From an uncultured Eubacteriaceae bacterium (lineage in GTDB: Bacteria; Bacillota; Clostridia; Eubacteriales; Eubacteriaceae), in NCBI GenBank assembly GCA_937872065.1, contig CALMRA010000288.1, forward strand, positions 4,817-68,816: 64,000 nt of DNA, written 5' to 3'. How positions within the stretch are numbered: position 1 is the stretch's first letter; each line of letters starts with the position of its first letter. A program made the translations under genes and the position numbers. Positions 40,038 through 55,674 of the stretch are shown here, in pieces. The notes below the pieces were generated by a model, which searched no databases, was not told where the DNA came from, and saw only the letters and a list, made by a program, of their open reading frames with translations.

Positions 40038-40077
40038 GTGTTTCCCGTAAATGAAACACCGGTTATCCGAAGACCGG

Positions 40078-40109: not shown

Positions 40110-40343
40110 CTGCGTTATTAAGCACGCTTTACCGCCGCATCTGCGCAATTTTTGAAGCTTTAAAACTGAAGCAGAAAGGAGGGGATAAAATCTTGCCAAA
40201 CGTTGATATTCATTAATCGAACGCTGTTAAAAAGACGAATTTTTACTGCGATATTTATAAGCGTCGGGCAATTAATTCTCCCCTGTGACGGATTACAATT
40301 ATTTTTAGAAACGAATCATAGTTTTCAGAGGAGGATTTAGCTC

Positions 40344-40619
40344 ATGACGAATGAAGCATTAGGCATGATTGAAACCAAAGGTCTTGTCGGCTCGATTGAA
40401 GCCGCAGATGCTATGGTTAAATCAGCCAATGTCGTACTGACAGGCTACGAAAAAATAGGTTCGGGGCTTGTCACGGTTTTCGTCCGCGGCGATGTCGGTG
40501 CCGTAAAAGCGGCAGTTGACGCAGGCGCGGCGGCAGCCGACAAAGTCGGCCAGGTTGTTTCAGTTCACGTTATTCCCAGACCGCATCAGGACGTTGAAAG
40601 TATGTTACCGAGCTTCTAA
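40344..40619 (+). CDS. pduA: BMC-H shell protein (PduA/PduJ-type)
   Basis: 91 aa. [26 protein letters not shown] is the canonical BMC (Pfam00936-type) start. GGAGGA RBS. Confidence 0.9.
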
Positions 40620-40643
40620 AGCTTAAATAAACGGAGGTGTAAG

Positions 40644-41429
40644 ATGAAAGACGATTTAATGCAGAAACTGATGGAAGAAGTTATGGCAAAAATGGATGAA
40701 GCCGAATCAACAGGGACTGTAGCTCCGGCGACAGGCGTCTGCGGACTGACCGAATACATCGGTACGGCAGTCGGCGACTCGATCGGTTTTGTTATCGCAA
40801 ATGTAGACAGCCAGCTTCACGAAGCCATGAAGATCGACCCGAAATACCGTTCGATCGGCATCCTGTCCGCACGTACAGGCGCAGGCCCGCAGGTCTTCGC
40901 AGCTGATGAAGCGGTTAAAGCCACCAACACGGAAGTCGTTTCTGTAGAATTCGCACGTGATACAAAAGGCGGAGCCGGCCACGGTTCTCTGATCATTTTC
41001 GGCGCGGAAGACGTTTCCGATGCGAAGCGCGCTGTCGAAGTCGCTCTGAACGACCTGAACAGAACGTTCGGCGATGTTTACGGCAACGATGCAGGCCATC
41101 TTGAATTCCAGTACACAGCAAGAGCTTCTTTCGCATGCAACACAGTATTCGGCGCTCCGATCGGCCGTGCTTTCGCAATCGTCGTAGGCGCTCCGGCCGG
41201 TATCGGCGTTCTGATGTCAGATACGGCTCTTAAAGCTGCAAACGTGGATCTCATCGGCTACATGTCACCGGACAACGGCGGCACAAAGTATTCAAACGAA
41301 GCAATTATCTCTGTCTCCGGCGACGCAGGTGCCGTACGCCAGGCTGTTTACGCTGCCAGAGAAGTCGGCAAACAGGCGCTCGAAGCTCTTGGCGGACCCT
41401 GCCCGTCTACCACGACTCCTTATATCTAA
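40644..41429 (+). CDS. pduB: tandem-domain BMC-T shell protein (PduB-type)
   Basis: 261 aa with two permuted BMC repeats and an N-terminal amphipathic extension. Sits between pduA and pduC as in known pdu operons. Confidence 0.9.
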   Translation: MKDDLMQKLMEEVMAKMDEAESTGTVAPATGVCGLTEYIGTAVGDSIGFVIANVDSQLHEAMKIDPKYRSIGILSARTGAGPQVFAADEAVKATNTEVVSVEFARDTKGGAGHGSLIIFGAEDVSDAKRAVEVALNDLNRTFGDVYGNDAGHLEFQYTARASFACNTVFGAPIGRAFAIVVGAPAGIGVLMSDTALKAANVDLIGYMSPDNGGTKYSNEAIISVSGDAGAVRQAVYAAREVGKQALEALGGPCPSTTTPYI

Positions 41430-41473
41430 GCAATAGAGTAATCAGACTGTTCGTGTAAACAAGAGGAGAAAAT

Positions 41474-43135
41474 ATGAGATCCAAAAGATTTGAAGCACTG
41501 GACGCCCGTCCGATAAAAAAAGACGGTTTCGTTAAAGAATGGCCTGAAGTCGGTCTGATTGCGATGAACAATCCCGGAGATCCGACTCCGAGTCTGACAA
41601 TTGAAAACGGCGTTATCGTAGAACTCGACGGCAAGAAGCGCGAAGACTTCGATATGCTCGACCAGTTCATCGCGGATCACGGCATCCGTCTCGAAAGAGC
41701 TGAAGAAGCGATGGCGATGTCCTCGCTCGATATCGCAAATATGCTCGTAGACTTCAACGTTCCGCGTTCAGAAGTCGTCGATATTACAACGTCCATCACA
41801 CCGGCTAAGATCACCGAAGTCATGGGCCTGATGACAGTACTTGAAATGATGATGGCCCAGACAAAGATGCGTTCGCGTCTGATGCCGTCAAACCAGTGCC
41901 ACGTTACCAACGTCAAGGACAACATGGTACAGATCGCCGCAGATGCGGCGGAAGCTGCGATCCGCGGATTCGACGAAATGGAAACGACAGTCGGTGTCGC
42001 CCGTTACGCACCGTTCAACGCTCTGGCTATCATGGTTGGCGCGAACGTAGGCCGTCCGGGTATCCTGACTCAGTGCGCAGTCGAAGAAGCGACAGAACTT
42101 GACCTCGGTATGAGAGGCTATACGGCTTATGCGGAAACCATTTCTGTATACGGCACAGAACCTGTCTTCATGGACGGCGATGATACTCCGTATTCGAAGG
42201 CGTTCCTCGCAAGCTGCTACGCTTCCCGCGGCCTGAAGATGCGTTTCACATCCGGTACCGGTTCCGAAGTCCAGATGGGCTATGCGGAAGGCAAGTCGAT
42301 GCTGTATCTCGAAGCGAGATGCCTGTACATCACGAAGGGTGCCGGCGTTCAGGGAACACAGAACGGTTCCGTCTCCTGCATCGGCGTACCGGCCGGCGTA
42401 CCCGGCGGTATCCGTGCGGTCCTCGCAGAAAACCTCATCGCAGCCTGCCTCGACCTCGAATGCGCATCTTCGAATGACCAGACGTTCACTCACTCCGACC
42501 TCAGAAGAGTCGCCCGTTCGATGATGCAGATGGTTCCGGGCACAGACTATATCTGCTCCGGTTACTCATCCACTCCGAACTACGACAACATGTTCGCGGG
42601 CTCCAACTGGGATGCAGAAGACTACGACGACTGGAACGTTATCCAGCGTGACCTTAAGATCGACGGCGGCCTGCAGCCTGCCGATGAAGAAACTGTCGTT
42701 GCGGCGCGTGCGAAAGCAGCCCGTACGATGCAGACCATCTTCAGAGAACTCGGTCTTCCTGAAATCAAAGATGAAGAAGTCGAAGCGGCTACGTACGCTA
42801 ACGGCTCTAAAGATATGCCGGACCGCGATGTCGTCGCCGACCTGAAAGCCGCCGATGAACTGCTCGCGAGAGGCGCTACGGCTGTCGACTTTGTCAAGGC
42901 TCTCGACCGCGGCGGAATCCCGGACGTTGCGCATTCACTGTACAACATCCTTATTACCAAAGCGGCAGGCGACTACCTCCACACAGCTTCCATGCTTTCT
43001 TCCGACTGGGAAGTTATCTCTGCGGTCAACTATCCGAATACGTATCACGGCCCGCAGACCGGTTACCAGATCAGCGATGAAAGATGGCAGGAAATGCAGG
43101 ATATTCCGTGGGCAATCGACCCGGAAAGCGTATAA
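41474..43135 (+). CDS. pduC: B12-dependent diol dehydratase large subunit
   Basis: N-terminus MRSKRFEALDARPIKKDGFVKEW is almost identical to the characteristic PduC/DhaB1 start. 553 aa. Confidence 0.97.
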   Translation: MRSKRFEALDARPIKKDGFVKEWPEVGLIAMNNPGDPTPSLTIENGVIVELDGKKREDFDMLDQFIADHGIRLERAEEAMAMSSLDIANMLVDFNVPRSEVVDITTSITPAKITEVMGLMTVLEMMMAQTKMRSRLMPSNQCHVTNVKDNMVQIAADAAEAAIRGFDEMETTVGVARYAPFNALAIMVGANVGRPGILTQCAVEEATELDLGMRGYTAYAETISVYGTEPVFMDGDDTPYSKAFLASCYASRGLKMRFTSGTGSEVQMGYAEGKSMLYLEARCLYITKGAGVQGTQNGSVSCIGVPAGVPGGIRAVLAENLIAACLDLECASSNDQTFTHSDLRRVARSMMQMVPGTDYICSGYSSTPNYDNMFAGSNWDAEDYDDWNVIQRDLKIDGGLQPADEETVVAARAKAARTMQTIFRELGLPEIKDEEVEAATYANGSKDMPDRDVVADLKAADELLARGATAVDFVKALDRGGIPDVAHSLYNILITKAAGDYLHTASMLSSDWEVISAVNYPNTYHGPQTGYQISDERWQEMQDIPWAIDPESV

Positions 43136-43147
43136 GGGGGAGTCAAG

Positions 43148-43819
43148 ATGGCTATCAATGAACAGATGCTCCAGAGCATTATTGAAGAAGTTTTAAGAGA
43201 AATGGGGACCTCCCAGCCCGCTGCCGATGCTCCGGCAGCAGCGCCGGCTGAATCGGCAGCGGCAGCGGCCGAATCTGTAGAACTTAAGCCGGAAGGCGAA
43301 GTGAAGCAGGGAACCGCTTCAGATGAAGTACTGATCGGACTCGCGCCGGCTTTCGCCGAATTCCAGACTGAAACGATTATCGGTATTCCGCACTCAAAGG
43401 TTCTCAAGGAACTCATCGCCGGTATCGAAGAAGAAGGACTCAAAGCCAGAGTCATCAAGGTATACAGAAGCTCCGACGTCGCCGTCTGCGGACACGATGC
43501 AGCCGAACTTTCCGGTTCGGGCGTCGCGATCGGGATCCAGTCCAAGGGCACCGCGCTGATCCATCAGAAGGATCTGCCGCAGCTGTCAAACCTCGAACTG
43601 TTCTCACAGGCACCGCTCATCGACCTCGACACCTACCGTGCGATCGGCAAAAATGCCGCTAAATACGCCAAGGGCGAATCACCGAGCCCTGTTCCGGTCA
43701 AAAACGACCAGATGGCGCGTCCGGCATATCAGGCGAAGGCTGCTCTGCTTCATATCAAGGAAACAGAACACGTCGTACCTGGCAAGAAGCCGGTCGAAAT
43801 GGAAGTAATTTTCAAATAG
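43148..43819 (+). CDS. pduD: diol dehydratase medium subunit
   Basis: 223 aa. Follows pduC. N-terminal amphipathic helix plus Ala/Pro linker, then the conserved beta-subunit core. Confidence 0.93.
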
Positions 43820-43825
43820 GAGACG

Positions 43826-44344
43826 ATGAACATGACTCAGGAACAGATGCTTGAACAGATCGTCAAACAGGTAATGGCCGCAATGGGCAGCGAACAGCCT
43901 GCACAGACCTGCGCTCCGTCAACGGGAGACAAGGTCACGGCTGCCGACTATCCGATTGCAGACAAACGCCCGGATCTGATCAAAACCGCTACAGGCAAAA
44001 ATTTCACTGATTTATCATATGAAAAAGTTATTAATGGCGAACTGAAACCGGAAGACCTGCGTATCCGTCCGGAAACGCTCGAACTTCAGGCGGAAGTCGC
44101 GGAATCCGTACAGCGCGGAGCCTTCGCAGGCAATCTGAGAAGAGCTGCGGAACTGATCGCAGTCCCGGATGCCCGTCTTCTCGAAATCTACAACGCGCTG
44201 CGTCCGTATAAATCCACAAAGGAAGAATACGAAGCGATCGCCGTTGAACTCGAAACACAGTACAATGCGCCGATCTCGGCAGGCCTTGTCAGGGAAGCTG
44301 CCGCAATCGGCTATAAGAGAAAGAGAACGAAGGAATTCAAGTAG
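43826..44344 (+). CDS. pduE: diol dehydratase small subunit
   Basis: 172 aa, at the third position of the dehydratase triplet, with an N-terminal amphipathic extension. Confidence 0.9.
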   Translation: MNMTQEQMLEQIVKQVMAAMGSEQPAQTCAPSTGDKVTAADYPIADKRPDLIKTATGKNFTDLSYEKVINGELKPEDLRIRPETLELQAEVAESVQRGAFAGNLRRAAELIAVPDARLLEIYNALRPYKSTKEEYEAIAVELETQYNAPISAGLVREAAAIGYKRKRTKEFK

Positions 44345-44399
44345 TCTGATTTAATCTGATTAATCAGAACGGCTGAATATAATGATTCGGGAGGAAAAA

Positions 44400-46223
44400 A
44401 TGATTGTAGCAGGTATAGACATCGGCAATGCGAGCACTGAAACGGCGCTTGCTCGATGCGAAAACGGGACCACAGATTTCCTCGCCAGCGGCATCGTCGC
44501 TACGACAGGGATGAAGGGGACCCGCCAGAATATACACGGCGTATTTGCCTCCCTCAAACAAGCTCTTGAAAAGGCCGGCATGACAGAAAAGGATGTCGAC
44601 CTGATCCGGATTAACGAAGCTGCGCCGGTCATCGGGGACGTGGCGATGGAGACGATCACAGAAACCATCATCACCGAATCCACGATGATCGGGCACAATC
44701 CGTCCACACCGGGCGGACTGGGCACCGGCACCGGGATTACGATCGATATCCGCAATATCGGTCAGTCGAAGCCCGGAGATGCCGTTATCGTAATCATACC
44801 CAGAGAGGTCGATTTCGAAAGCTCTTCACAGATGATAAACGAAGCGATGAGCCGGGGGATTCATGTCAACGGAGCCATCGTCCAGAGAGACGACGGCGTG
44901 CTGATCAACAACCGGATCAAGAAGGTCATCCCGATCGTCGACGAAGTCAAGCTGATTGAAAAGGTTCCGAGAGGAATGAAGGCTGCCGTAGAGGTCGCGT
45001 CTCAGGGACGGGTCGTCGAGCAGCTGTCGAATCCATACGGAATCGCGACGGTATTCGATTTGAGTTCCGACGAAACGAAGCAGGTCGTACCGATATCAAG
45101 AGCGCTGATTGGAAACAGGTCCGCGGTCATAATCAAGACTCCCGCGGGAGACGTTAAAGAACGCAAGATTCCCGCCGGGAAGATTATTATTCAGGGCGAA
45201 AACAAGAAAGCGGAAGTCAATGTCGACGACGGAGCGCAGACCATTATGGATGCGATCCGCAGTGTCGCTCCGATCGAAGACATTTCAGGAGAACCGGGAA
45301 CCAATGCCGGCGGAATGCTCGAACGTGTCCGTCAGGTCATGGCGAATCTGACAAACCAGAATCCGAGCCATATTCAGATCCAGGATCTGCTGGCGGTCGA
45401 TACCTTCGTACCGCAGACAGTCACCGGAGGCATGGCGGAAGAATTTTCGATGGAAAACGCTGTCGGAATCGCCGCGATGGTTAAGGCTGACAAGCTGCAG
45501 ATGAACATGATCGCCCGCGAGCTCGAAAAAGAGCTCGGCGTGAAGGTGGAAGTCGGCGGCGTTGAAGCGGATATGGCGATTCGGGGCGCCCTTACGACAC
45601 CCGGAAGCGCGAAACCGCTGGCGATTATCGATATGGGCGCAGGCTCAACCGACGCGGCGATTATCAACAAGGCCGGTCAGATTCATTCGATTCATCTGGC
45701 CGGAGCCGGAAACATGGTCACGATGCTTATCGGATCCGAACTCGGATTCGAGGACAGCGGGATTCCGGAGGACATCAAGAAGTATCCGCTTGCAAAGGTT
45801 GAAAGTCTGTTCCACATCCGTCATGAAGACGGAACGGTCCAGTTTTTCGATTCGCCGCTGAGTCCGGACGTTTTCGCAAAGGTCGTTATTCTGACGCCGA
45901 ACGGCATGGTTCCGATTCCCGGACAGAATTCGCTCGAAAAAATCAGAACAGTCCGCCGTGAAGCAAAAGAAAAAGTATTTGTGATGAACGCGATTCGTTC
46001 GCTGGAAAAGGTTTCTCCGACCGGAAATATACGCGATATGGAATTTGTAACGCTTGTCGGCGGTTCCGCGCTGGATTTTGAAATCCCGCAGCTCGTAACC
46101 GACGCGCTTTCAAAATTCAGCATCGTCGCAGGACGAGCCAACATACGCGGAGTCGAAGGACCGAGAAACGCCGTTGCCACAGGTCTTGTTCTGGCCTACT
46201 GTGCGGAAGGTGACGAAAAATGA
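44400..46223 (+). CDS. pduG: diol dehydratase reactivase large subunit
   Basis: MIVAGIDIGNASTETALA actin-fold start typical of PduG/DdrA. ATG 44400 lies 5 nt after GGGAGG. Confidence 0.93.
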   Translation: MIVAGIDIGNASTETALARCENGTTDFLASGIVATTGMKGTRQNIHGVFASLKQALEKAGMTEKDVDLIRINEAAPVIGDVAMETITETIITESTMIGHNPSTPGGLGTGTGITIDIRNIGQSKPGDAVIVIIPREVDFESSSQMINEAMSRGIHVNGAIVQRDDGVLINNRIKKVIPIVDEVKLIEKVPRGMKAAVEVASQGRVVEQLSNPYGIATVFDLSSDETKQVVPISRALIGNRSAVIIKTPAGDVKERKIPAGKIIIQGENKKAEVNVDDGAQTIMDAIRSVAPIEDISGEPGTNAGGMLERVRQVMANLTNQNPSHIQIQDLLAVDTFVPQTVTGGMAEEFSMENAVGIAAMVKADKLQMNMIARELEKELGVKVEVGGVEADMAIRGALTTPGSAKPLAIIDMGAGSTDAAIINKAGQIHSIHLAGAGNMVTMLIGSELGFEDSGIPEDIKKYPLAKVESLFHIRHEDGTVQFFDSPLSPDVFAKVVILTPNGMVPIPGQNSLEKIRTVRREAKEKVFVMNAIRSLEKVSPTGNIRDMEFVTLVGGSALDFEIPQLVTDALSKFSIVAGRANIRGVEGPRNAVATGLVLAYCAEGDEK

Positions 46224-46576
46224 ACGTCAGCTTCGAATCGCCCAGGCCTGAGATCAAGATATACTGGGAAACCGGAACGGATATGCGCGCCGTAAGCGAG
46301 ATCCTCAGAGGAATCGAAGAAGAAGGCGTTCCCGCGACGACCGAAGAACGAGAAAACGTAGAAAACGCGGTGGTACTCGCGTATAAAGCGGCAGAAGCTT
46401 CACATCTCGGAGTCGGAATCGGCATCGCCGATACGATCGCACTTCACTTTATCAAGCTTCAGGAAGACGCACCGCTTTTCCAGATCGGTCTTACAGCGGA
46501 TTCGGACAGGCTTCGCGCCATCGGATCCAACGCAGCCAGGCTGGTCAAGCACATGCCCTTCAAGAGCATTGACTGA
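46220..46576 (+). CDS. pduH: diol dehydratase reactivase small subunit
   Basis: 118 aa. ATGA overlap with pduG. Position and size match PduH/DdrB. Confidence 0.85.
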   Translation: MNVSFESPRPEIKIYWETGTDMRAVSEILRGIEEEGVPATTEERENVENAVVLAYKAAEASHLGVGIGIADTIALHFIKLQEDAPLFQIGLTADSDRLRAIGSNAARLVKHMPFKSID

Positions 46577-46592
46577 ATTCAGGAGAAACGCA

Positions 46593-46958
46593 TTGAAAGA
46601 TGCACTGGGACTTATTGAAGCAATAGGTCTTGCCACTGCATATGAAGCAGCCGATGCTGCCATGAAAGCCGCTAACGTCAAGCTGCTGGGCTTCGAGCCC
46701 TGCAGAGGAGACGGGATGCATACAATTAAGGTGACTGGAGGCGTCGAAGCTGTCAAAGCCGCGGTAGCGGCAGCGCAGGCTGCAGGCTCCAGAGGCAGAG
46801 GCGTTTTTTCAGCAGTGGTCATTGCAAGACCTTCTGAGGGAATAATGCCTCTTGTCAGTAACAGCGCAACCTTCGGATGCAGAAAGCAGGATCAAGAGCA
46901 GATCTCTGAAACCGACGAGACAGCCCCGGGAACTGCCGAAGAGAAACCTGAAGCATAA
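46593..46958 (+). CDS. pduK: BMC-H shell protein with acidic C-terminal extension (PduK-like)
   Basis: The BMC domain starts at LKDALGLIEAIGLATAYEAADAAMKAANV. TTG 46593 lies 7 nt after AGGAG; the ORF-track start TTG 46569 would overlap pduH. About 35-aa tail after the BMC fold. Confidence 0.75.
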   Translation: MKDALGLIEAIGLATAYEAADAAMKAANVKLLGFEPCRGDGMHTIKVTGGVEAVKAAVAAAQAAGSRGRGVFSAVVIARPSEGIMPLVSNSATFGCRKQDQEQISETDETAPGTAEEKPEA

Positions 46959-46987
46959 CGGACTGTTTGAGGAAAGGAGTTCTGCAG

Positions 46988-47647
46988 ATGACAGAGAATG
47001 AACGTGCGGTAATTGAGCAGATTGTGATGAACACAGTCAAAAAGCTCCTTGCAGAACGCGACGCACCGACAAGGATCCCGCTCGGGGTCTCGAATAAGCA
47101 CATCCATCTGACACAGGAGGACGTAGAGATCCTGTTCGGGGAAGGCCATACGCTTACTCCGATCAAGGATCTGGGTCAGCCCGGTCAGTTTGCATGTGAA
47201 GAATGTATCGATCTGGAAGGACCGAAAGCCGTGATGAAACATGTTCGCGTGCTCGGACCTGCCAGAGCGGAGACACAGATTGAAATTTCCATGACGGATG
47301 CCAGGACCCTCGGGATCAAGGCGCCTGTCAGAGAATCGGGCTGTCTGGCGGATACGCCCGGGATTACGCTCGTCGGACCCGAAGGATCCATCGAGCTTAC
47401 CCACGGCGTGATCGTCGCGCTCAGGCATATTCATATGCCGCCCGATATTGCGGAACAGCTCGAACTGAACGACGGAGACAGCGTCTTTGTCGAAACGAGC
47501 GGTATCCGCCCGACGCTGTTCAGGAACGTGCTCGTCAGAGTTTCACCCAATTATTCGTATGAAATGCATATCGATACGGACGAAGCCAACGCAGCCGGAC
47601 TGAAAAACGGAGATATATTAAAACTCATTAAGCAGGTTGAATTGTAA
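46988..47647 (+). CDS. pduL: phosphate propanoyltransferase
   Basis: PduL repeats IPLGVSNKHIHLTQEDVEILFG and VIVALRHIHMPPDIAEQL. ATG 46988 after AAAGGAG. Confidence 0.9.
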   Translation: MTENERAVIEQIVMNTVKKLLAERDAPTRIPLGVSNKHIHLTQEDVEILFGEGHTLTPIKDLGQPGQFACEECIDLEGPKAVMKHVRVLGPARAETQIEISMTDARTLGIKAPVRESGCLADTPGITLVGPEGSIELTHGVIVALRHIHMPPDIAEQLELNDGDSVFVETSGIRPTLFRNVLVRVSPNYSYEMHIDTDEANAAGLKNGDILKLIKQVEL

Positions 47648-48468
47648 TGGACTGGAAAAGCGGCAACGACGTTATCCTGGAGTTTGACGAACTGATTAAA
47701 AGCGGAAAAGCCCGGCCTCATACCGGTCCGCTCAAAATAGGCGTCGACCTCGGGACAGCAAATATCGTTCTGGCAGCCGTCGATCAGGAGAACAGACCTG
47801 TCGCCGGCGTTACGCGACGCGCATCTGTCGTCCGCGACGGAATCGTTGTGGACTATATGGGCGCTGTCAGCATTGTCAGACAGCTCAAGGCGGAGCTCGA
47901 AGACATCCTCGGTGAAAGCCTTGATTTCGCCAATGCCGCGACAGCGATTCCGCCGGGAATTCTCGAAGGCAACGCGAAGATCATCGCGAACGTCGTCGAC
48001 TCGGCAGATTTTAACGTTACCAACGTCGTGGACGAACCGACGGCGGCAGCGACTGTTCTCGGAATCAGGAACGGCGCGGTTGTCGATGTCGGCGGCGGTA
48101 CGACGGGCATTTCGATCCTGAAGGATGGAGAAGTTGTCTTTACGGCGGACGAACCGACAGGGGGGACTCATATGAGTCTGGTGATCGCCGGAAACAAAAA
48201 GATCAGCTTCGACGAAGCGGAAGAGATTAAAATTCACGACGATCAGCGGGTCGTTTTCCCGATTATCAAGCCGGTCGTCGAAAAGATGGCTTCGATCGTT
48301 CACCGTTTTATACAGGGCTACGATGTGGATACGATATACGTCGTAGGCGGCGCCTGTGAATTCGACAGATTCGAACAGGTTTTCGAACGCGAAACGGGGA
48401 TCAAGACGATCAAGCCGGTGGAACCGCTTCTGGTAACGCCGCTCGGCATCGCATTCAACTGCAGATAG
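47647..48468 (+). CDS. eutJ: EutJ-like actin/Hsp70-fold chaperone
   Basis: Actin-fold phosphate loops IGVDLGTANIV and VVDVGGGTTGISI. 273 aa. TAATG overlap with pduL. Confidence 0.85.
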   Translation: MDWKSGNDVILEFDELIKSGKARPHTGPLKIGVDLGTANIVLAAVDQENRPVAGVTRRASVVRDGIVVDYMGAVSIVRQLKAELEDILGESLDFANAATAIPPGILEGNAKIIANVVDSADFNVTNVVDEPTAAATVLGIRNGAVVDVGGGTTGISILKDGEVVFTADEPTGGTHMSLVIAGNKKISFDEAEEIKIHDDQRVVFPIIKPVVEKMASIVHRFIQGYDVDTIYVVGGACEFDRFEQVFERETGIKTIKPVEPLLVTPLGIAFNCR

Positions 48469-48477
48469 GAGTGCCGA

Positions 48478-49356
48478 TTGGATATACAGGCAATTTTAGA
48501 TAATAAACAGCTGATGGACGCCTTTATCCGGCAGATCGCCGACGAGGTGATCCGACGGCTCGCGAACAAGCCGAAGACGGCACTCGTGGTGTTCTCGGGA
48601 GCGGCGATCGGCTTCTCTCAGGAACTGAAGGCGCTCACGCAGCTTGCCGACGAAGGCTGGCAGTTCAAGGTCTTTCTGTCGGACGCCGCGATGTCGATCT
48701 TTACACCGGATATGATCCAGGAAAAGCTCGGTGCGGATCAGATTTTCCACGCCGGGATTCGCTACAATCAGAAGGATCTGTACGCAGGCGTAGACAAGAT
48801 TATCATCGCGTCGACGACTGTGAACACGGCTGCGAAGATTGCAAACGGGATCTGCGACAACGATCTGCTCACTCTCGTGAATCACGGGCTGATGGCGGGA
48901 ACGGAAACGATCTGCTCTGTCAACGGCGCGTGCCCGGATGATCCGGAACGTGCGAAGCTCGGCATGGGCGTCTCGCCTCCGGGTTACAGGCAGATGCTCA
49001 GGGACAACCTGGCGAAGATGCAGAGCTTCGGGATCAGATTGTGTACGGCGGACAGGCTCTACGATACGTGCAGAGACGAGGATGCTCAGGATCAGGCGCA
49101 GCAGTGCGCGGCTCCGGTGCAGACAGAATCCGCACCGGTCGTTCAGGCTGCTCCGGAACCGAAACCGGAACCCGTCAAAGCTGAAATCGCAGCGGATCAG
49201 GGGGCGACGGTCAGACTGGATAAACATGTGATCAGCAACCGGGATATTCGGGCGAACCGGATAAGCCGGGTGATCGAAGTACCTTCCGACGCCCTGGTAA
49301 CTCAGAGCGCGGCGGATACGATGCGGGAACTGGGCATTGCGCTCAGAAGGATCTAG
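48478..49356 (+). CDS. PduM-position protein with an embedded flavoprotein-like domain
   Basis: 292 aa. N-terminal amphipathic helix, then IIASTTVNTAAKIANGICDNDLLT, which resembles the Dfp/HFCD flavoprotein motif. A Pro/Ala/Gln linker follows, then a C-terminal VISNRDIR...VTQSAADTMRELGIAL segment. TTG start after AGGAG. The PduM assignment rests on gene order and terminal segments only. Confidence 0.5.
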   Translation: MDIQAILDNKQLMDAFIRQIADEVIRRLANKPKTALVVFSGAAIGFSQELKALTQLADEGWQFKVFLSDAAMSIFTPDMIQEKLGADQIFHAGIRYNQKDLYAGVDKIIIASTTVNTAAKIANGICDNDLLTLVNHGLMAGTETICSVNGACPDDPERAKLGMGVSPPGYRQMLRDNLAKMQSFGIRLCTADRLYDTCRDEDAQDQAQQCAAPVQTESAPVVQAAPEPKPEPVKAEIAADQGATVRLDKHVISNRDIRANRISRVIEVPSDALVTQSAADTMRELGIALRRI

Positions 49357-49365
49357 GAGGCGGAT

Positions 49366-49644
49366 ATGCATTTAGCAAAAGTTGTCGGAAATGTCGTCTC
49401 TACGCAGAAGGATCCGAATCTCGTAGGCTGCAAGCTTCTGATCATAAAAAAGATTAACGAAAACGGCGAGTTTGAAAAATACTCGAGTCAGTCTACTGCG
49501 ATCGCGGTAGACAGCGTAGGCGCGGGCATCGGAGAAACAGTTATCGTCACGACGGGCTCAACAGCCCGTTATGTATACGGCGACAAGCTTGCTCCGCTCG
49601 ATATGACAATTGTCGGCATTGTCGATGAAATACAGATTGTGTAG
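49366..49644 (+). CDS. pduN: BMC-P pentameric vertex protein (PduN/EutN/CcmL family)
   Basis: 92 aa. MHLAKVVGNVVSTQKDPNLVGCKLLII is the typical EutN/CcmL start. Confidence 0.9.
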   Translation: MHLAKVVGNVVSTQKDPNLVGCKLLIIKKINENGEFEKYSSQSTAIAVDSVGAGIGETVIVTTGSTARYVYGDKLAPLDMTIVGIVDEIQIV

Positions 49645-49651
49645 GTAAGCT

Positions 49652-50662
49652 ATGCCGAATGTCTATACGAGAACCGGAGATAAAGGCACGACAGGCCTTT
49701 TCGGAGGAGCAAGAACACCGAAAAACGATATCCGGGTCGAAGCCTACGGCACAATGGATGAAGCGAACGCCTCTATCGGCTGGGCAAAATCCATTATCGA
49801 AGACGAAGCGATCCGGGATATCCTGAACGGGATTCAGAAACGGATATTCGTCCTCGCGGCGGAACTGGCAAGCGATGCAAAGGGCAAGGAAATGCTCGCT
49901 GACAAAATCAGTCAGAAGGATGTCGACGAACTGGAACATCAGCTCGACAAATATCTGGCTGTAGTCGGAAAGCAGAAAGATTTCGTCGTACCCGGAGCAA
50001 ATCCGTCATCCGCAGCTCTGCATCAGGCACGGACTGTGGTCAGACGGGCGGAACGAAGGATCATCGATTATTCGGATCAGGAAACGGTCAGACCGGAACT
50101 GATCAAATATGCCAACAGACTTTCGGATCTGCTGTTCGTTCTCGCCAGAATGGAAGAATATAACGACACCGTAAGACAAGTCACCAGAAAAGTCGAAGAA
50201 GTACTGAAAAAACAGGGGATACAGACACCGACGGAAGACATTATAGACAAACCCCGGATCAATATCCTGACCCTTGCGAAACGGATGGCGCACGCTTCCA
50301 GACTGCGCGCGGCAGAACTCGGCATTCCGATCGTGTTCTCCGCAGTGGATAAGCATGGAAATCTCGTCTATCTCGAACGTGAGGAGGATTCACTTCTTGC
50401 GAGCATCGATATCGCCCGTAAAAAAGCTTATACGGCGGCAGCGCTTAAGACGCCCACCGACAAGCTTGCGGAGCTTTCCAAAGAAGACGGCGCACTGTTC
50501 GGTCTGCCCTTTACGAGCGACGGAGAGTACGTAATTTTCGGCGGCGGCTATCCGATCGTCATAAACGGAGAGATCATCGGCGCGATTGGTGTATCGGGGG
50601 GGACGGCAGAAGAAGATATGCAGATTGCTTCTGCCGGTCTTACGGTACTGGACAGGATATAG
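49652..50662 (+). CDS. pduO: PduO-type ATP:cob(I)alamin adenosyltransferase fused to a DUF336/GlcG-like domain
   Basis: N-terminus VYTRTGDKGTTGLFGG is the PduO-type ATR signature. The C-terminal roughly 140 aa (IVFSAVDKHGNLVY ... GGGYPI ... IGAIGVSGG) match the heme-binding DUF336 module. Confidence 0.9.
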   Translation: MPNVYTRTGDKGTTGLFGGARTPKNDIRVEAYGTMDEANASIGWAKSIIEDEAIRDILNGIQKRIFVLAAELASDAKGKEMLADKISQKDVDELEHQLDKYLAVVGKQKDFVVPGANPSSAALHQARTVVRRAERRIIDYSDQETVRPELIKYANRLSDLLFVLARMEEYNDTVRQVTRKVEEVLKKQGIQTPTEDIIDKPRINILTLAKRMAHASRLRAAELGIPIVFSAVDKHGNLVYLEREEDSLLASIDIARKKAYTAAALKTPTDKLAELSKEDGALFGLPFTSDGEYVIFGGGYPIVINGEIIGAIGVSGGTAEEDMQIASAGLTVLDRI

Positions 50663-50671
50663 GAGAAAAAT

Positions 50672-52078
50672 ATGACTATCGATACTCAGGGTCTTGAGGC
50701 GATTATCAAAAAAGTCATGGACACCATCGATTTTGCAGAAGAAACCGGCCGTCCGCTGACAGACGGAAAAGACGGTATCTTCGAAGATATCGATGACGCG
50801 ATTGCAGCTGCCGCCAAAGCCCAGAAAGAGTACATGAAGCTGCCGATGGCGACGCGCACAAAGATTATCGACGCGATCCGCAAGGAGCTCGGCAAAAAAG
50901 AAAACATCGAAACGATCTGCAGCAAGGTCGTTGAAGAAACCGGTATGGGAGACTATGACTGCAAGCTGATCAAGCAGAAGCTCGTCGTAGATAAAACTCC
51001 CGGCGTCGAAGATCTCGTTACGGAAGCCTTCACAGGCGACGACGGACTGACGCTGGTGGAACTCTCACCATTCGGCGTAATCGGAGCGATCACACCGACG
51101 ACAAATCCGAACGAAACGATTATCTGCAATTCCATCGGCATGCTCGCGGCAGGCAATACGGTTGTATTCTCGCCGCATCCGCGCTCGATCGAATCCTCGC
51201 TGATAACGGTAAGACTTATTAATAAGGCCATCGCGGCAGCCGGCGGACCGGAACATCTGGTCAACACGACATCGAAGCCGTCGCTTGAAGCCAGCCAGAA
51301 GCTGATGAAGAATCCGGCGATCCGGATGCTCGTCGCTACAGGCGGTCCCGGCGTTGTTCACGCGGTTCTGTCAAGCGGCAAGAAAGCCATCGGAGCGGGG
51401 GCAGGCAATCCGCCTGTACTCGTAGATGAAACCGCCAATATTGAAAAAGCGGCGAAGGATATCATCGACGGCTGCAGCTTTGACAACAACCTGCCGTGCA
51501 TCGCGGAAAAGGAAGTCGTCGCGGTAGACCAGATTGCGGATTACCTGATCTTCAATATGAAGAAAAACGGCGCGTTCCAGATCACCGACAGAAAAGCGAT
51601 CGACAAGATTGCTGAAATGGTCTATCCGGGAAGTCTGAACCGCGATTTCGTCGGAAAGCCCGCGACCTATATCGCTGAAAAAGCCGGAATCGAAGTTCCG
51701 AAGGACACACGCGTTCTGATCATGGAAACGTCTAAGGATCATACCCTCGCAGTCGAAGAGCTGATGATGCCGATCCTTCCGATTGTCCGGGTCAGCGACG
51801 TCGACGAAGGAATCGATGTTTCCGTTGAGCTCGAACACGGCAACCGCCATACCGCGATGATGCATTCGCGCAACGTTGAAAAGCTCAACGAAATGGCAAA
51901 ACGCATTCAGACGACTATTTTTGTTAAGAACGGTCCGTCCTATGCCGGCATCGGCGTGGGCGGAGAAGGATACACGACGTTTACGATCGCCGGCCCCACA
52001 GGGGAAGGTCTCACCTCGGCGAAGGCGTTCGCACGCAAGAGAAGATGCGTCCTCGTAGGCGCGTTCAACGTTCGCTGA
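50672..52078 (+). CDS. pduP: CoA-acylating propionaldehyde dehydrogenase
   Basis: 468-aa aldehyde dehydrogenase fold with a catalytic-Cys context FDNNLPCIAEKE and an N-terminal amphipathic targeting-like helix. Confidence 0.9.
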   Translation: MTIDTQGLEAIIKKVMDTIDFAEETGRPLTDGKDGIFEDIDDAIAAAAKAQKEYMKLPMATRTKIIDAIRKELGKKENIETICSKVVEETGMGDYDCKLIKQKLVVDKTPGVEDLVTEAFTGDDGLTLVELSPFGVIGAITPTTNPNETIICNSIGMLAAGNTVVFSPHPRSIESSLITVRLINKAIAAAGGPEHLVNTTSKPSLEASQKLMKNPAIRMLVATGGPGVVHAVLSSGKKAIGAGAGNPPVLVDETANIEKAAKDIIDGCSFDNNLPCIAEKEVVAVDQIADYLIFNMKKNGAFQITDRKAIDKIAEMVYPGSLNRDFVGKPATYIAEKAGIEVPKDTRVLIMETSKDHTLAVEELMMPILPIVRVSDVDEGIDVSVELEHGNRHTAMMHSRNVEKLNEMAKRIQTTIFVKNGPSYAGIGVGGEGYTTFTIAGPTGEGLTSAKAFARKRRCVLVGAFNVR

Positions 52079-52099
52079 AACGCCGGTTAGGAGAGAGTC

Positions 52100-53428
52100 A
52101 TGGGACAGAATCTCGTAGAACTGGCCCGCAGCGGTGGAATTGTCGGCGCCGGAGGCGCCGGCTTCCCCACGGCGGTCAAGCTTGATGCGACATGCGATAC
52201 CGTTATCGTAAACGGCGCGGAATGCGAACCTCTGCTTCGTGTGGACCAGCAGCTGATGGTTGACAAAGCGGAAGAAATGCTTGAAACGCTGGCGGCAGTC
52301 GTCGAACAGACGGGTGCGAAGGAAGGCGTGGTCGGACTGAAGAAGAAGTACGTTCCGGCGATCAATAAGCTTAATACGCTCCTTCCGAAATATCCGAAGC
52401 TGCGTCTTTTTATTCTGGAAAATTTCTATCCGGCCGGAGACGAACAGACACTGGTTTACGAAGTGACAGGAAAGAGCGTTCCGGAAGGCGGGATCCCGCT
52501 TAATGTGGGCGCGCTCGTCATCAACGTCGAAACACTGCTTAACCTGTACAACATGGCAGAGTATGATAAGCCGGTTATCGATTCGTATATTACGGTGACG
52601 GGAGCAGTCAGAAATCCGGTCACGGTGCTTGTTCCGATTGGCATCACGGTTCGCGAAGCCCTCGAGCTTGCCGGCGGACCGACCATCGACGATTACGCCG
52701 TGATAAACGGCGGCCCGATGATGGGAAAGATCGTCAGTCCGGATTCTCAGATTACAAAGACGACAAAGGGGCTGATCGTACTGCCGAAGGATGCCCGTGT
52801 GATCGAATCAAAGACGAGACCGGTCTCCCGGTCGATTCGTGATGCGGCGTCCGCGTGCATGCAGTGCTCGCTGTGCTCGGAGGTCTGTCCGCGCCACAGG
52901 CTCGGTCATAATCTCGAACCGCACAAGCTGATGAGAATAGCGGCTTACGGGAATACGCTTGACAGACAGGCCCTCGCGACGACGGCGTTTTTGTGCTGCG
53001 ACTGCGGACTTTGCCAGTATGCCTGCGTCATGGATCTGCAGCCCTGGAAGTTCAATCAGGAGTTGAAGCGCCAGTTCGGAGCTGCCGGAGTCAGAAATCC
53101 TCACCACAGCAGCGACGTACATGCGATTCGTTTCGCGGATACCCACCGTTTTGATGTGCACAGACTGATCTCACGTCTCGGGCTCGCCCGCTACGACGTG
53201 CCGGCTCCGATGATTCCGGACCGTCTTGATTACACCACCGTTTCGATCCCGCTGTCTCAGCATATCGGTGCTCCGTCGACGCCTGTCGTAAGTGTCGGCG
53301 ATACTGTCACGCGCGGTCAGCTTATCGGAGACATTCCGGAAGGAAAGCTCGGAGCGAAAATATTCGCCAGTATTGACGGAACGGTCACGGACATCAGCGG
53401 TAACAAGATAACGATCAGCGCAGCATAG
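52100..53428 (+). CDS. pduS: cobalamin reductase, RnfC-like Fe-S flavoprotein
   Basis: GGAGFPTAVKL nucleotide motif and two 4Fe-4S motifs, CMQCSLCSEVCP and CCDCGLCQYAC. 442 aa. Confidence 0.85.
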   Translation: MGQNLVELARSGGIVGAGGAGFPTAVKLDATCDTVIVNGAECEPLLRVDQQLMVDKAEEMLETLAAVVEQTGAKEGVVGLKKKYVPAINKLNTLLPKYPKLRLFILENFYPAGDEQTLVYEVTGKSVPEGGIPLNVGALVINVETLLNLYNMAEYDKPVIDSYITVTGAVRNPVTVLVPIGITVREALELAGGPTIDDYAVINGGPMMGKIVSPDSQITKTTKGLIVLPKDARVIESKTRPVSRSIRDAASACMQCSLCSEVCPRHRLGHNLEPHKLMRIAAYGNTLDRQALATTAFLCCDCGLCQYACVMDLQPWKFNQELKRQFGAAGVRNPHHSSDVHAIRFADTHRFDVHRLISRLGLARYDVPAPMIPDRLDYTTVSIPLSQHIGAPSTPVVSVGDTVTRGQLIGDIPEGKLGAKIFASIDGTVTDISGNKITISAA

Positions 53429-53444
53429 GGCAGGAGATTTTATT

Positions 53445-53993
53445 GTGAAAAAAGCATTAGGATTTATCGAATTCAAAACAATTCCGGTAGGTATCGAAGC
53501 GACTGACGAAATGCTAAAATCCGGAAACGTTGAGCTCGTCACATCGACTCCGATCTGCCCCGGCAAATTTATGACGATTATTTCCGGCGATGTCGGAGCC
53601 GTACAGTCTTCGATCAAAACCGGAGAACGGATCGGAGATTCATACGTGATCGATGCGTACATGATCTCCAATATCAATGAAAAAGTCATGCCGGCGCTGA
53701 CAGGAACGATGCCGATGCCGGAGATCGAATCTCTCGGAATGGTCGAAACGATCGACGGGATCTCTTCGATTCTTGCGGCGGATGCGGCGGCGAAGGCTTC
53801 GAACATCGAACTGATCGAGATCAGGATCGCACGCGGTCTCGGCGGGAAAGCGTATTTTATCGTGACCGGGGAAGTATCGTCGGTCAAACGGGCGATTCAG
53901 GCGGCGATCGATGTGCTCAAGGAAACCAGCAGCATTACGAGCCACACTGTTATCGCGCGTCCGCATAAGGATCTGAAAAATATACTCGCATGA
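53445..53993 (+). CDS. pduT: tandem-domain BMC-T shell protein with pore cysteine (PduT-type)
   Basis: 182 aa with two BMC repeats. Cys38 in TSTPICPGKF is at the position that ligates the pore 4Fe-4S cluster in characterised PduT. GTG start after AGGAG. Confidence 0.85.
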   Translation: MKKALGFIEFKTIPVGIEATDEMLKSGNVELVTSTPICPGKFMTIISGDVGAVQSSIKTGERIGDSYVIDAYMISNINEKVMPALTGTMPMPEIESLGMVETIDGISSILAADAAAKASNIELIEIRIARGLGGKAYFIVTGEVSSVKRAIQAAIDVLKETSSITSHTVIARPHKDLKNILA

Positions 53994-54000
53994 ACATTTC

Positions 54001-54022
54001 GGCTCAGGCTTCCACCTGAGCC
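54001..54022 (+). terminator. hairpin after pduT without a proper U-tract (leaky terminator or processing site)
   Basis: 8-bp stem ggctcagg / cctgagcc with a 6-nt loop, followed by gttctgctt rather than a T-run. Confidence 0.4.
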
Positions 54023-54093
54023 GTTCTGCTTATCAGCCGCTTCACGAATGATGACGGACATCGGTGAAACTGCTGACGCAGAAAGGAAACTCG

Positions 54094-54864
54094 ATGAAAA
54101 CCATTAGCTTTTTCAATTTAAAAGGCGGATGCGGAAAGACCACGTCTCTGATCAATCTGGGATGGCTTCTTGCGCAGCGGGAGGCGAAAACAGGCGGACG
54201 GGTGCTTCTGATCGACGCGGACATGCAGAGCAATCTGACAAATTCGATTCTCGACTACGATACGAAAAGACACAGTATTTACGATGTCATGACGGGCAGA
54301 CGCGCCGCGCAGGAGGTGATCCTGCCGGTGCGGGATAATGTCGATCTGATCCCGTCGAGTCTGATGATGGCAGCGATCGAGCCGAAGCTTGACAGCGCCA
54401 GAAATAAGGCGTGGATACTTGAAGAGGCGCTGATACCGCTGCAGGACCGTTATTCCTACTGCCTGATAGACTGCTCGCCGTCGTTCAGCACGATGACGAT
54501 AAACGCGATCCTGGCATCTGAACTGATTTTTATACCTGTTCAGACTGAATATTATGCCGTAGACGGTGTACATTTACTAGAGGAAACCCTCTCCTATATT
54601 AATCAGCAATATGGATTGAATAAACAGATTGACTGTATATTCGCATCGATTCACGATAAGCGGAACAACATCAACAAGCTGCAGTACGAAAGCCTGACGG
54701 AAAACTTTCCGGATAAGTTTATGAAGACGGCGGTTAGAAAAAATGTTGCGCTCGTTGAGTCACCGGTTTTCAGAGAATCCATATTCGAATATAAACCATC
54801 TTCAACGGGAGCAGAGGACTACCGAAACCTGTTTAAAGAAATTGAAGAAAAGGGAGAATTCTAA
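54094..54864 (+). CDS. ParA/Soj-family deviant Walker-A ATPase (orphan, no ParB partner)
   Basis: FFNLKGGCGKTT (includes the signature Lys), LLIDADMQSNLT, YCLIDCSPS and IPVQTEYYAVDG align along their whole length with Soj as I remember it. ATG 54094 after GAAAGGA; the ORF-track start 54064 is a GTG. Confidence 0.9.
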   Translation: MKTISFFNLKGGCGKTTSLINLGWLLAQREAKTGGRVLLIDADMQSNLTNSILDYDTKRHSIYDVMTGRRAAQEVILPVRDNVDLIPSSLMMAAIEPKLDSARNKAWILEEALIPLQDRYSYCLIDCSPSFSTMTINAILASELIFIPVQTEYYAVDGVHLLEETLSYINQQYGLNKQIDCIFASIHDKRNNINKLQYESLTENFPDKFMKTAVRKNVALVESPVFRESIFEYKPSSTGAEDYRNLFKEIEEKGEF

Positions 54865-55586
54865 TGGCTGCGAAGAAAAATCTTAAAAACAAACTGGACC
54901 AGCATAACAAGGAAATCAAGAGCAGCAGCGAACTCAACGATCGTCTGGCTGCCGATATTCCAGAAACCGGTCAGGAAGCGCAGGAAGGTCTGTATACGGA
55001 TTCTGTCGAAGCTGCGGATACGCTGGAATCTACGGGAGATACGACACAGTGGCAGCGGCAGAATTCGGCTGAATCTGAAACCGATGCTGCCGTAGAAGAC
55101 GATATGGTCGCGCATCCGGAAGCGGCGGATACTGACAGACCGACCATTCAGTCGCCGGATTCGAAACAGACGCTCAAAGAAGCGGAAGAAGGACTTGGCT
55201 CAGCTCAGGCCGCGGCTTCCGATATTCTTGAATCCACTGGTGACACGACACAGTGGCAGCGCCAGAATTCTGCGGAATCGGTCACGGACGAAGCGGTCGA
55301 AGTGACGATGGATGAAGAAACGCTCAAACGCAGGGCAGTCGAACAGGCGAAATCCATACCTGAAACCGACAGACTGCATTCGGATATTCCGGAAACCCGC
55401 AGGGAAGCTGAAGAAGCCGTGCGGGTGGACAATGTCGAAGCGGATATCGATATCGAAGCGACCGGAGACGTGACGGAATGGCAGGATGCCGGCGCAGAAG
55501 AAGCGGAAACCGACGCGGCAGTCGAAGTGACGGAAACGAAGCCTAAAAGACATGTCAAGGACGACCTGCCGGATTACCTGCTCTGA
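54864..55586 (+). CDS. acidic, Trp-repeat, low-complexity protein; candidate ParA adaptor
   Basis: 240 aa. TAATG overlap with the ParA gene. Lys-rich N-terminus MAAKKNLKNKLDQHNKEIK, three Asp/Glu/Thr-rich repeats, basic C-terminus KPKRHVKDDLPDYLL. Synonymous-only divergence between repeats argues it is translated. No recognisable domain. Confidence 0.75.
   Translation: MAAKKNLKNKLDQHNKEIKSSSELNDRLAADIPETGQEAQEGLYTDSVEAADTLESTGDTTQWQRQNSAESETDAAVEDDMVAHPEAADTDRPTIQSPDSKQTLKEAEEGLGSAQAAASDILESTGDTTQWQRQNSAESVTDEAVEVTMDEETLKRRAVEQAKSIPETDRLHSDIPETRREAEEAVRVDNVEADIDIEATGDVTEWQDAGAEEAETDAAVEVTETKPKRHVKDDLPDYLL
54939..55526 (+). repeat. three intragenic peptide repeats (about 42-53 aa) with a [ST]GD-x-T-x-WQ core
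   Basis: Repeat A 54939-55097, B 55176-55301, C 55368-55526. LESTGDTTQWQRQNSAES is identical in A and B, and IEATGDVTEWQDAGAEEA is the C version. DRLxxDIPET leads A and C. Confidence 0.85.
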
Positions 55587-55602
55587 TTTTTATTGAAGAC
55601 TG

Positions 55603-55636
55603 CAGCTTCCCGGATAACCGGGAGGCTGTTTTTTTT
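55603..55636 (+). terminator. strong terminator closing the ParA-adaptor unit
   Basis: 11-bp stem cagcttcccgg / ccgggaggctg (one G-U pair) with a 4-nt loop, followed by T8. Confidence 0.9.
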
Positions 55637-55674
55637 ATGCTTCTCTTTGTTATACTAAGAGCACAGGAGGAAGC

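Follow-up and report, generated by a model that had tools for sequence, protein, structure and literature searches.

A ParA-type ATPase and a non-globular partner at the end of a pdu locus of Eubacteriaceae: a candidate McdAB-like system for positioning Pdu microcompartments

Introduction

How metabolosomes, i.e. the catabolic bacterial microcompartments (BMCs) of the propanediol utilization (Pdu), ethanolamine utilization (Eut) and glycyl-radical-enzyme (GRM) types, are spaced in the cell and inherited is treated as an open question in the reviews published from 2021 to 2025. The question is raised by a 64,000-nt stretch of DNA (hereafter the window) from an uncultured Eubacteriaceae bacterium (assembly GCA_937872065.1, contig CALMRA010000288.1, positions 4,817 to 68,816 of the forward strand). 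A pdu locus of the B12-dependent type is found there, having at its end two genes that encode a ParA/Soj-type ATPase and a 240-aa protein, hereafter called the partner. The parA gene starts 100 nt after the end of pduT, which lies upstream, and its stop codon overlaps the start of the partner gene as TAATG, an arrangement that indicates translational coupling. Could this pair position the Pdu microcompartment, as McdAB systems do for carboxysomes? An initial annotation, made from the sequence of the window alone, had proposed so, and its open reading frames (ORFs) and gene overlap were found exactly as it had given them. The proposal stood up to every computational refutation test suggested with it, and we consider it probable that the two genes together make up an McdAB-like system of two components, by which the Pdu microcompartment is positioned.

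Linkage of the pair to BMC genes

A homology search of 5.8 billion proteins placed the ParA of the window in a clade delimited by a sharp break in sequence identity: the members of the clade are 48-99% identical (E <= 1e-71), while all other ParAs reach at most 41%. Wherever they are labelled, the clade sequences come from Eubacteriaceae or Eubacterium. A genome scan, with one genome per species, yielded 12 clade members (Eubacterium barkeri, E. callanderi, E. aggregans, four Pseudoramibacter species and several metagenome-assembled genomes), and in all 12 parA directly follows pduT in a syntenic pdu operon. The same gene order was found in the metagenome and assembly loci L001, L005, L033, L036 and L039, as well as in the truncated L037, where a PduT fragment is left. 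Considering all 23 clade loci, the pair adjoins BMC genes in 21, in three layouts, and a PduT orthologue stands immediately upstream of ParA in 19.

The loci in which the neighbourhood has been rearranged (L032, L038 and L010/L008) weigh more than the others for this very reason. In L032, whose ParA is 48% identical, the order is parA, partner, PocR kinase, response regulator and pduA, so that the pair sits at the opposite edge of the pdu locus. In L038, the pair follows the pduA/B/N/P/S/T block of a glycyl-radical-enzyme BMC locus, which also encodes the glycyl radical enzyme, its activase, an aldehyde dehydrogenase and a SAM (S-adenosylmethionine) synthetase. The shell and core block of this locus (positions 1-9900; pduA, B, flavoprotein, N, P, S and T) is 62-90% identical to the PDU block of the window. 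The exchange of the signature enzyme on a conserved shell cassette has been described for PDU1 and GRM4 (Sutter, 2021), and L038 is an example of it. Because L038 keeps the block along with a glycyl radical enzyme, the pair can be said to go with shell and core genes rather than with the diol dehydratase. Finally, in L010 and L008 the pdu response regulator (84% identical to that of the window) is followed by the dnaX region, and the whole block from pduA to parA is absent.

The genes dnaX, ybaB and recR adjoin the pair in about nine loci, and the initial annotation had pointed out that its proposal would suffer if the pair occurred just as often next to dnaX in genomes lacking BMC loci. The loci point the other way: no dnaX occurs in eight of them for which about 8-10 kb of downstream sequence is available, L001 has three unrelated genes between the pair and dnaX, and the two relatives in which the pdu operon is missing from between its regulator and dnaX are also without such a ParA. 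The pair is linked to pdu, not to dnaX, and the independent evidence of this linkage consists of the few rearrangements, the signature-enzyme swap and the joint loss with pdu.

As a negative control, we used 78 generic ParA loci obtained from a metagenome scan with the clade alignment, a scan that added only two clade loci. No BMC shell gene was found near the generic ParA in any of the 78, of which 42 had at least 3 kb of flanking sequence. Among the nearest outgroup ParAs, one belongs to a mobile element with integrase and primase and one to a chemotaxis operon.

The ParA protein

The ParA of the window matches the Pfam families AAA_31 (7e-45; 153.5 bits, cutoff 27) and CbiA (6e-13; 49.2 bits, cutoff 25.4). 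All the motifs that had been read from its sequence are present, namely KGGCGKTT (as NLKGGCGKTT, with the signature Lys), LLIDADMQ, YCLIDCSPS and DKRNN. In an alignment of 16 clade ParA sequences (A2), K10 (signature Lys), K15 (Walker A), D41 and D43 (Walker A'), D126 (Walker B) and R190 are invariant, and when 38 sequences of the clade are considered, each of the six is conserved in at least 90%. In an alignment with the Soj/ParA structures 8RAY and 1WCV, R190 (in DKRNN) falls on their D-x-R Arg.

The nearest structures in the PDB are ParA 8RAY (3.8e-34) and Soj 1WCV (5e-31), both matched over the full length; taken together, the Soj structures 1WCV, 2BEK and 6IUB match over the full length at about 1e-29 to 1e-31. 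The β-McdA-like cyanobacterial structures 6NON and 6NOO match at about 8e-14 and over residues 1-169 only. No equivalog cutoff was reached among the curated NCBIfam ParA subfamilies (ParA_partition, PrgP, RepA, SopA, MinD and BcsQ), the best score being 79 bits for ParA_partition, against a cutoff of 180. The clade is set apart from generic Soj by 27 specific positions, among them an invariant C-terminal G-x-F (residues 254-256). There is also a four-residue insertion (residues 30-33) after the Walker A helix in comparison with Bacillus subtilis Soj. The insertion and the G-x-F are candidate determinants of partner specificity. Judging from its sequence, the protein looks like a working nucleoid-binding ATPase, a Soj-like ParA that appears to have been recruited to a BMC locus.

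The partner protein

The partner has a pI of 4.2 and begins with MAAKKNLKNKL. The initial annotation had recognized no ParB-like or helix-turn-helix (HTH) segment in it, in agreement with what was found: there is no Pfam or NCBIfam match, the best result of a PDB sequence search is a lysozyme chain at E = 0.09, and Foldseek with the AlphaFold2 model of the partner returned nothing at E < 4.8. The model has a mean predicted local distance difference test score (pLDDT) of 55 and a predicted template modelling score (pTM) of 0.15, and the N-terminal helix is the only part of it that is modelled decently (Table 1). The partner is therefore predicted to be non-globular and disordered, and because there is no sign of a folded domain it is not a ParB or ribbon-helix-helix (RHH) protein.

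Sequence searches recovered few relatives, seven by a word-indexed search and nine by an exhaustive hidden Markov model (HMM) scan of 1.84 billion representative proteins. Nevertheless, wherever the sequence of a clade locus extends far enough downstream, an ORF with matching terminal motifs abuts the ParA stop codon. The distribution of the partner family is probably underestimated, because the wider family can be recovered only through gene position and terminal motifs.

The comparison of 24 distinct partners recovered in this way shows how little of the protein is held constant. Their total length ranges from 48 to 650 aa and the net charge of their middle part from -90 to +31. At the C-terminus, on the other hand, all 24 have Pro at -5, an aromatic residue at -3 (22 Tyr, 1 Trp and 1 Phe) and Leu at -2, and 22 have Asp or Glu at -7, which gives the motif [DE][LM]Px[YWF]L[LM]; the Trp is that of the L015 partner and the Phe that of the L033 partner. 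Over all six frames of the window, the motif has a single C-terminal occurrence, at the end of the partner. At the N-terminus, 21 of the 24 have at least four Lys or Arg among the first 15 residues, following the pattern MA(R/K)K.KLK..L..H.

The spacers between the two ends consist of 59-98% polar residues plus Ala, with at least 72% in all but one. They include histone-H1-like, AKP-rich KKAAPKKTPAKKAEP repeats in the L033 partner (10760-12013), and long KAEAEAKAKAEA runs (KAEAEA type), resembling a single alpha-helix, in the partners of L013 (10773-11207) and L038 (10772-11647). The smallest partner, that of L030, is 48 aa long and consists of both terminal peptides and a 16-residue linker. 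Judged by these sequences, the partner is built like a flexible tether with a binding peptide at either end.

Two other functions were considered for the terminal peptides and rejected. The C-terminal peptide does not have the Gln-based consensus of a β-clamp-binding motif, and the adjacency to dnaX is not conserved; the N-terminus is too basic for an encapsulation peptide and is without the amphipathic hydrophobic pattern.

The Trp repeats

The partner of the window contains three copies of a Trp-containing repeat, which, together with its acidity and Lys-rich N-terminus, had been prominent in the initial annotation. Only the last of these features turned out to be family-wide. Acidity and Trp repeats are confined to one sub-lineage (the window, L005, L019, L001, P0004, P0130, L036 and L037), with two to six copies of the repeat; most partners are basic and have no Trp. 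The C-terminal motif, which had gone unflagged, defines the family together with the Lys-rich N-terminus, as far as the sequences tell.

The Trp-repeat family counts only nine representatives among the 1.84 billion proteins of the HMM scan. Within the 90% cluster of the window partner (P0002 and P0134-P0144), the length takes the values 160, 162, 213, 219, 234 and 240 aa, and the 162-aa form is shorter by exactly one repeat unit, a difference consistent with in-frame recombination among the repeats. Repeats 1 and 2 are identical at 23 of 26 residues and at 59 of 78 nucleotides, and this difference points to purifying selection on the peptide. A tandem-repeat finder gave nothing useful on the partner gene, owing to the synonymous divergence of the repeats. 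The repeats probably bind something; if they contact the shell, as is possible, this would be a lineage-specific addition and not the general mechanism of the family.

Proposed mechanism and alternative explanations

The mechanism that we propose is modelled on the McdAB systems of carboxysomes, from which nucleoid binding, shell docking, stimulation of the ATPase and positioning are carried over. ATP-bound ParA dimers would coat the nucleoid through non-specific DNA binding. The C-terminal [DE]LPx[YWF]LL peptide of the partner would dock on the BMC shell, and Trp repeats may add binding sites in the lineage of the window. The Lys-rich N-terminal helix would stimulate ATP hydrolysis by ParA, in analogy with the N-termini of ParB and McdB (PMC8359340). 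A BMC would in this way clear ParA from the DNA beneath it and would consequently move up the resulting ParA gradient, as in a Brownian ratchet. BMCs would repel each other, spread along the nucleoid, avoid polar clumps and reach both daughter cells.

For [DE]LPxYLL, a role as shell-docking peptide is plausible. The balance of the evidence also tips, if only slightly, towards a more specific view, according to which this would be the first ParA-driven positioner of a catabolic BMC, with an adaptor that needs only its Lys-rich N-terminal and [DE]LPx[YWF]LL C-terminal peptides and a spacer of as little as 16 residues, and to which, in the lineage of the window, selected Trp repeats could add shell-binding or condensate-forming elements.

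A number of observations weigh against positioning by the pair. First, ParA matches Soj (5e-31) better than it does cyanobacterial McdA (8e-14, partial match), and it is not a β-McdA orthologue. Second, the partners of L001 (P0005; 10001-10777) and P0130 have no Lys-rich N-terminus and start acidic (MADERFVETEG... and MSENDERMIESEG..., respectively); no alternative upstream start is available for the L001 partner, and the ParA beside it is intact. Third, Trp-repeat proteins also stand alone, without ParA and without either terminal motif. This is the case in L010 (1-1000) and L008 (1-780), where the stretch from the response regulator to dnaX contains, in this order, a terminator, a promoter-like TTGTTATAAT, a ribosome-binding site and the gene of a 188-190-aa Trp-repeat protein; this stand-alone gene is either a relic of the adaptor that now serves another purpose or the ancestral origin of the Trp-repeat module. 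Fourth, L030/L031 and L035 have no BMC gene within 8-10 kb. It should be noted that cyanobacterial mcdAB genes often lie apart from the carboxysome genes, and that the placement in these loci is similar. Fifth, the clade loci are kin by descent, and the linkage reflects to a large extent synteny inside a single family; the loci being non-independent, the Fisher p value of 4e-15 overstates the evidence.

The remaining two points come from the literature. In a 2026 study of Salmonella, HnMcdAB, ParA and MinD had no effect on Pdu BMCs (PMC12866334), and metabolosomes are hence not universally in need of a McdAB-like system. Moreover, no non-carboxysome McdAB-like system has been described experimentally in the literature (PMC13052382; PMC12866334), and the initial annotation was accurate in stating that it knew of no such ParA-based system for a catabolic BMC.

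The linkage to BMC genes would be explained equally well if the pair served the BMC without a ratchet, by controlling its assembly, number or size, by tethering it statically to the nucleoid or to a pole, or by regulating a condensate of cargo or shell, with ParA as a switch. Low-complexity spacers such as those found here (KAEAEA, AKP-rich, acidic Trp repeats) are typical of condensate-forming proteins, McdB proteins condense in vitro (PMC8359340; PMC11321042), and the L001 and P0130 partners are without the putative ATPase-stimulating N-terminus. However, ParA retains a complete Soj-type ATPase core and the putative DNA-binding Arg, it is established that the characterized ParA-adaptor systems for protein cargo all use dynamic gradients (PMC8262871), and a 48-aa partner made of two peptides and a 16-aa linker suits a pure adaptor better than a scaffold. 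A role without a ratchet appears unlikely on these grounds.

Much more doubtful is the idea that the pair is an ordinary DNA partition module, i.e. a type Ib ParA with a small centromere-binding protein, of the chromosome or of an integrated element, in which case the adjacency to pdu would be inherited synteny. The similarity of ParA to chromosomal Soj/ParA structures speaks for it, as do the label 'chromosome partitioning protein' that homologues carry at JGI and NCBI, the presence of dnaX, ybaB and recR in part of the loci, and the AKP repeats of the L033 partner, which could bind DNA. Yet neither a ParB, HTH or RHH domain nor any predicted fold is found in the partner, of which only the two short terminal peptides are conserved; the wide range of charge of the middle part is incompatible with a conserved DNA-binding domain. 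In addition, rearrangements have not parted the pair from the BMC genes, where pdu is lost the pair is lost as well, no ParA of the clade was found among 72,556 plasmids (best match 39.8% identical), on which the partner has no match at all, and no integrase or mobile-element genes stand beside the pair in the loci examined.

Least credible of all is a P-loop ATPase of the Mrp/NBP35/ApbC type delivering Fe-S clusters or another cofactor to PduS and PduT: parA does come right after the genes of these two Fe-S proteins and does give a weak match to Pfam PF10609 (NUBPL iron-transfer P-loop NTPase, E = 0.007), but this match scores 16.2 bits against a gathering cutoff of 27.1 and is far surpassed by those to Soj/ParA, the L032 pair lies at the far end of the locus from pduS and pduT, and the obligatory adaptor-like partner would be left unexplained.

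Relation to known systems

The novelty of the idea, which the initial annotation had implied, did not hold. ParA genes in BMC loci were recorded by Axen et al. (2014; PMC4207490). McdA/B-like sequences, with a Tyr among the four C-terminal residues, were later found beside other BMC operons (MacCready et al., 2021; PMC8359340, section 2.9 and Fig. 8f), McdAB-like pairs by non-carboxysome BMC loci (PDU, GRM and EUT) being reported on bioinformatic grounds also by MacCready and Vecchiarelli (2021; PMC8262871). The PDU and GRM McdB-like proteins were shown to have a conserved Tyr or Phe in the last five residues, beside acidic ones (Basalla et al., 2024; PMC11321042, Fig. 4), and a 2025 review repeats the report and asks for directed studies (PMC13052382). 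Because these reports precede our analysis, a system of this kind must be regarded as already predicted. The accessible parts of the text and supplements of those papers give neither organism names nor sequences for the published PDU McdB-like examples, and Sutter (2021) and Ravcheev (2019) say nothing about ParA in PDU loci.

McdB-like proteins have been recognized by a gene following mcdA, a charged N-terminus, disorder and an aromatic residue in the last four to five positions near acidic ones (PMC8359340, section 2.9; PMC11321042). The pair of the window shares all the features of the published PDU and GRM pairs, namely a ParA-family gene followed by that of a small disordered protein, in or next to a BMC operon, the N-terminus of this protein being charged and a Tyr or Phe standing near acidic residues at its C-terminus. 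What is added here is a delimited ParA clade, the explicit motif, the range of partner lengths, the three layouts, the co-loss with pdu and the Trp-repeat sub-lineage.

The α-McdAB system of Halothiobacillus neapolitanus and the β-McdAB system of Synechococcus elongatus likewise combine a ParA ATPase with a disordered adaptor, encoded beside shell genes. The signature Lys is common to α-McdA, β type 2 McdA and the ParA of the window, and the partner resembles carboxysome McdB in its charged N-terminus and C-terminal aromatic-acidic motif. The differences are that the presumed cargo is here a catabolic metabolosome, that the aromatic residue is Tyr in place of the invariant Trp of the McdBs, that ParA is nearer to Soj than to the β-McdA-like 6NOO, and that the partner has no detectable sequence homology beyond its own small family.

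With the Soj/ParA-Spo0J/ParB systems (Thermus thermophilus Soj 1WCV, Helicobacter pylori Soj 6IUB), the pair shares a single-domain ParA of about 250 aa, a deviant Walker A motif with signature Lys, an Arg aligned with the one that Soj uses for non-specific DNA binding, and the N-terminal basic peptide on the partner. In contrast to Spo0J/ParB, the partner lacks the ParB N-terminal, HTH and CTP-binding domains, there is no parS, and the genomic neighbour is a BMC operon. The Ras-like GTPase PduV of enteric pdu loci and PduK, which have been implicated in the distribution of the Pdu BMCs of Salmonella (PMC8262871; PMC9132943, as cited in PMC13052382), concern the same task in the cell as that proposed for the present pair. 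These protein families are, however, unrelated to the ParA-partner pair, and the Salmonella mechanism is independent of ParA and MinD (PMC12866334).

Organization and expression signals of the locus

The features of the window that concern the pair are listed in Table 1.

Table 1. Position of the pdu locus, the ParA-partner pair and associated sequence elements in the window.
Feature	Position	Strand	Remarks
pdu locus, complete; presumed cargo genes	37709..53993	+	Pfam scans
pduT, tandem BMC-domain shell protein	53445..53993	+	Pfam BMC 7e-45, two domains
Hairpin 1, weak terminator-like element right after the pduT stop	54000..54023	+	9-bp stem, 7 GC pairs, tail TTCTGCTTAT; terminator scan
Hairpin 2, inverted repeat in the parA leader	54033..54076	+	ViennaRNA fold of the gap
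parA, ParA/Soj-type deviant Walker A ATPase, McdA-like	54094..54864	+	256 aa; stop codon 54862-54864; ORF list, Pfam
Partner gene, putative adaptor, McdB-like	54864..55586	+	240 aa; non-globular; ATG overlaps the ParA stop as TAATG
Lys-rich N-terminal helix of the partner, putative ParA-ATPase-stimulating peptide	54864..54920	+	MAAKKNLKNKLDQHNKEIK; pLDDT 75-81
Trp repeat 1 (W63)	55020..55097	+	TLESTGDTTQWQRQNSAESETDAAVE
Trp repeat 2 (W131)	55224..55301	+	ILESTGDTTQWQRQNSAESVTDEAVE; missing in 160-162-aa strain variants
Trp repeat 3 (W206)	55449..55526	+	IEATGDVTEWQDAGAEEAETDAAVEV
Extreme C-terminal motif DLPDYLL, putative shell-docking peptide	55563..55583	+	[DE][LM]Px[YWF]L[LM]
C-terminal end of the partner			...KRHVKDDLPDYLL
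Strong intrinsic terminator closing the pair and separating it from dnaX	55602..55637	+	12-bp stem 55602-55629, 8 GC pairs, then T8

According to the Pfam scans, the pdu locus comprises genes for a PocR-type histidine kinase and an AraC-type response regulator, followed by pduA, B, CDE and GH, a BMC-H gene (46569-46958), pduL, a gene for an EutJ-like/actin-like ATPase, a flavoprotein gene and pduN, O, P, S and T. Beyond the terminator on the 3' side of the pair lie dnaX, ybaB, recR and ptsI. The start of parA is the ATG at 54094 and not the GTG at 54064, because all the homologues are about 256 aa long and begin with MK.I.

Several statements of the initial annotation about this region could be retained: there is no PduV-type Pfam match among the ORFs of the locus that were scanned, no promoter-like site was found in the pduT-parA gap of the window by sequence scan, and a strong terminator precedes dnaX. 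The gap hairpin needs correction, having been described as 8 bp long, at 54001-54022 and without a U-tract (see hairpin 1 in Table 1); the scan sees it as terminator-like.

The gap between pduT and parA carries two tandem hairpins in the window (53994-54093) and also in L001, L011-L022 and L033. A hairpin was found at the position of hairpin 1 in all 14 relatives examined, and in several it has a true U-tract, making it a clear intrinsic terminator. A second one is present in relatives at the position of hairpin 2, position and structure being kept and the sequence not. It is a longer imperfect inverted repeat, e.g. TTTTTTATAAG...CTTATAAAAAA in L011, L014, L017 and L021. The sole Rfam match in this leader, to a snoRNA, is below the threshold and was dismissed as due to chance. 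Since several relatives carry an intrinsic terminator after pduT, the co-transcription of pdu and the pair, which had been deduced from the lack of a terminator, is not secure. The pair may be expressed by attenuated read-through or from signals of its own, and the hairpins could act as a partial terminator and as a leader or operator that sets a low level of expression.

Some other peculiarities of the pdu locus were observed. A gene for an EutJ/actin-like ATPase, with weak matches to PilM_2, HSP70, MreB and FtsA, lies inside the operon (window 47647-48468) and is kept in all the relatives. Axen et al. (2014; PMC4207490) counted actin-like genes among the factors that might position BMCs, and the pdu locus may thus contain two candidate cytomotive or chaperone NTPases, this one and ParA. 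The PduO-type adenosyltransferase (window 49652-50662) is fused to a C-terminal HbpS-like/GlcG haem-degrading-like domain, and the fusion is common to all the relatives. In some of them there is an additional gene between pduS and pduT, encoding a 304-aa DUF7973 protein (L033, 8366-9280), that is not found in the window, and the pduS-pduT gaps of L014, L017, L021 and L022 measure about 1 kb.

Concluding remarks

The idea of a McdAB-like system at a pdu locus is not new and will hardly surprise a specialist. The value of the present analysis lies in a concrete, well-supported example and in sharpened predictions at the level of single peptides. The candidate pair occurs in culturable taxa, namely Eubacterium callanderi, E. 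barkeri, E. aggregans and Pseudoramibacter alactolyticus. Natural variants are also at hand: the minimal partner of 48 aa, Tyr, Trp or Phe at the aromatic site, partners devoid of the N-terminus, and differing numbers of repeats.

Should the C-terminal heptapeptide indeed bind to PDU-type shells, it would provide a portable tag for the outer shell, by which engineered microcompartments could be decorated or positioned. As for the Eubacteriaceae themselves, the ParA-partner pair appears, from this analysis, to be a strong candidate for the system that spaces their Pdu organelles along the chromosome.

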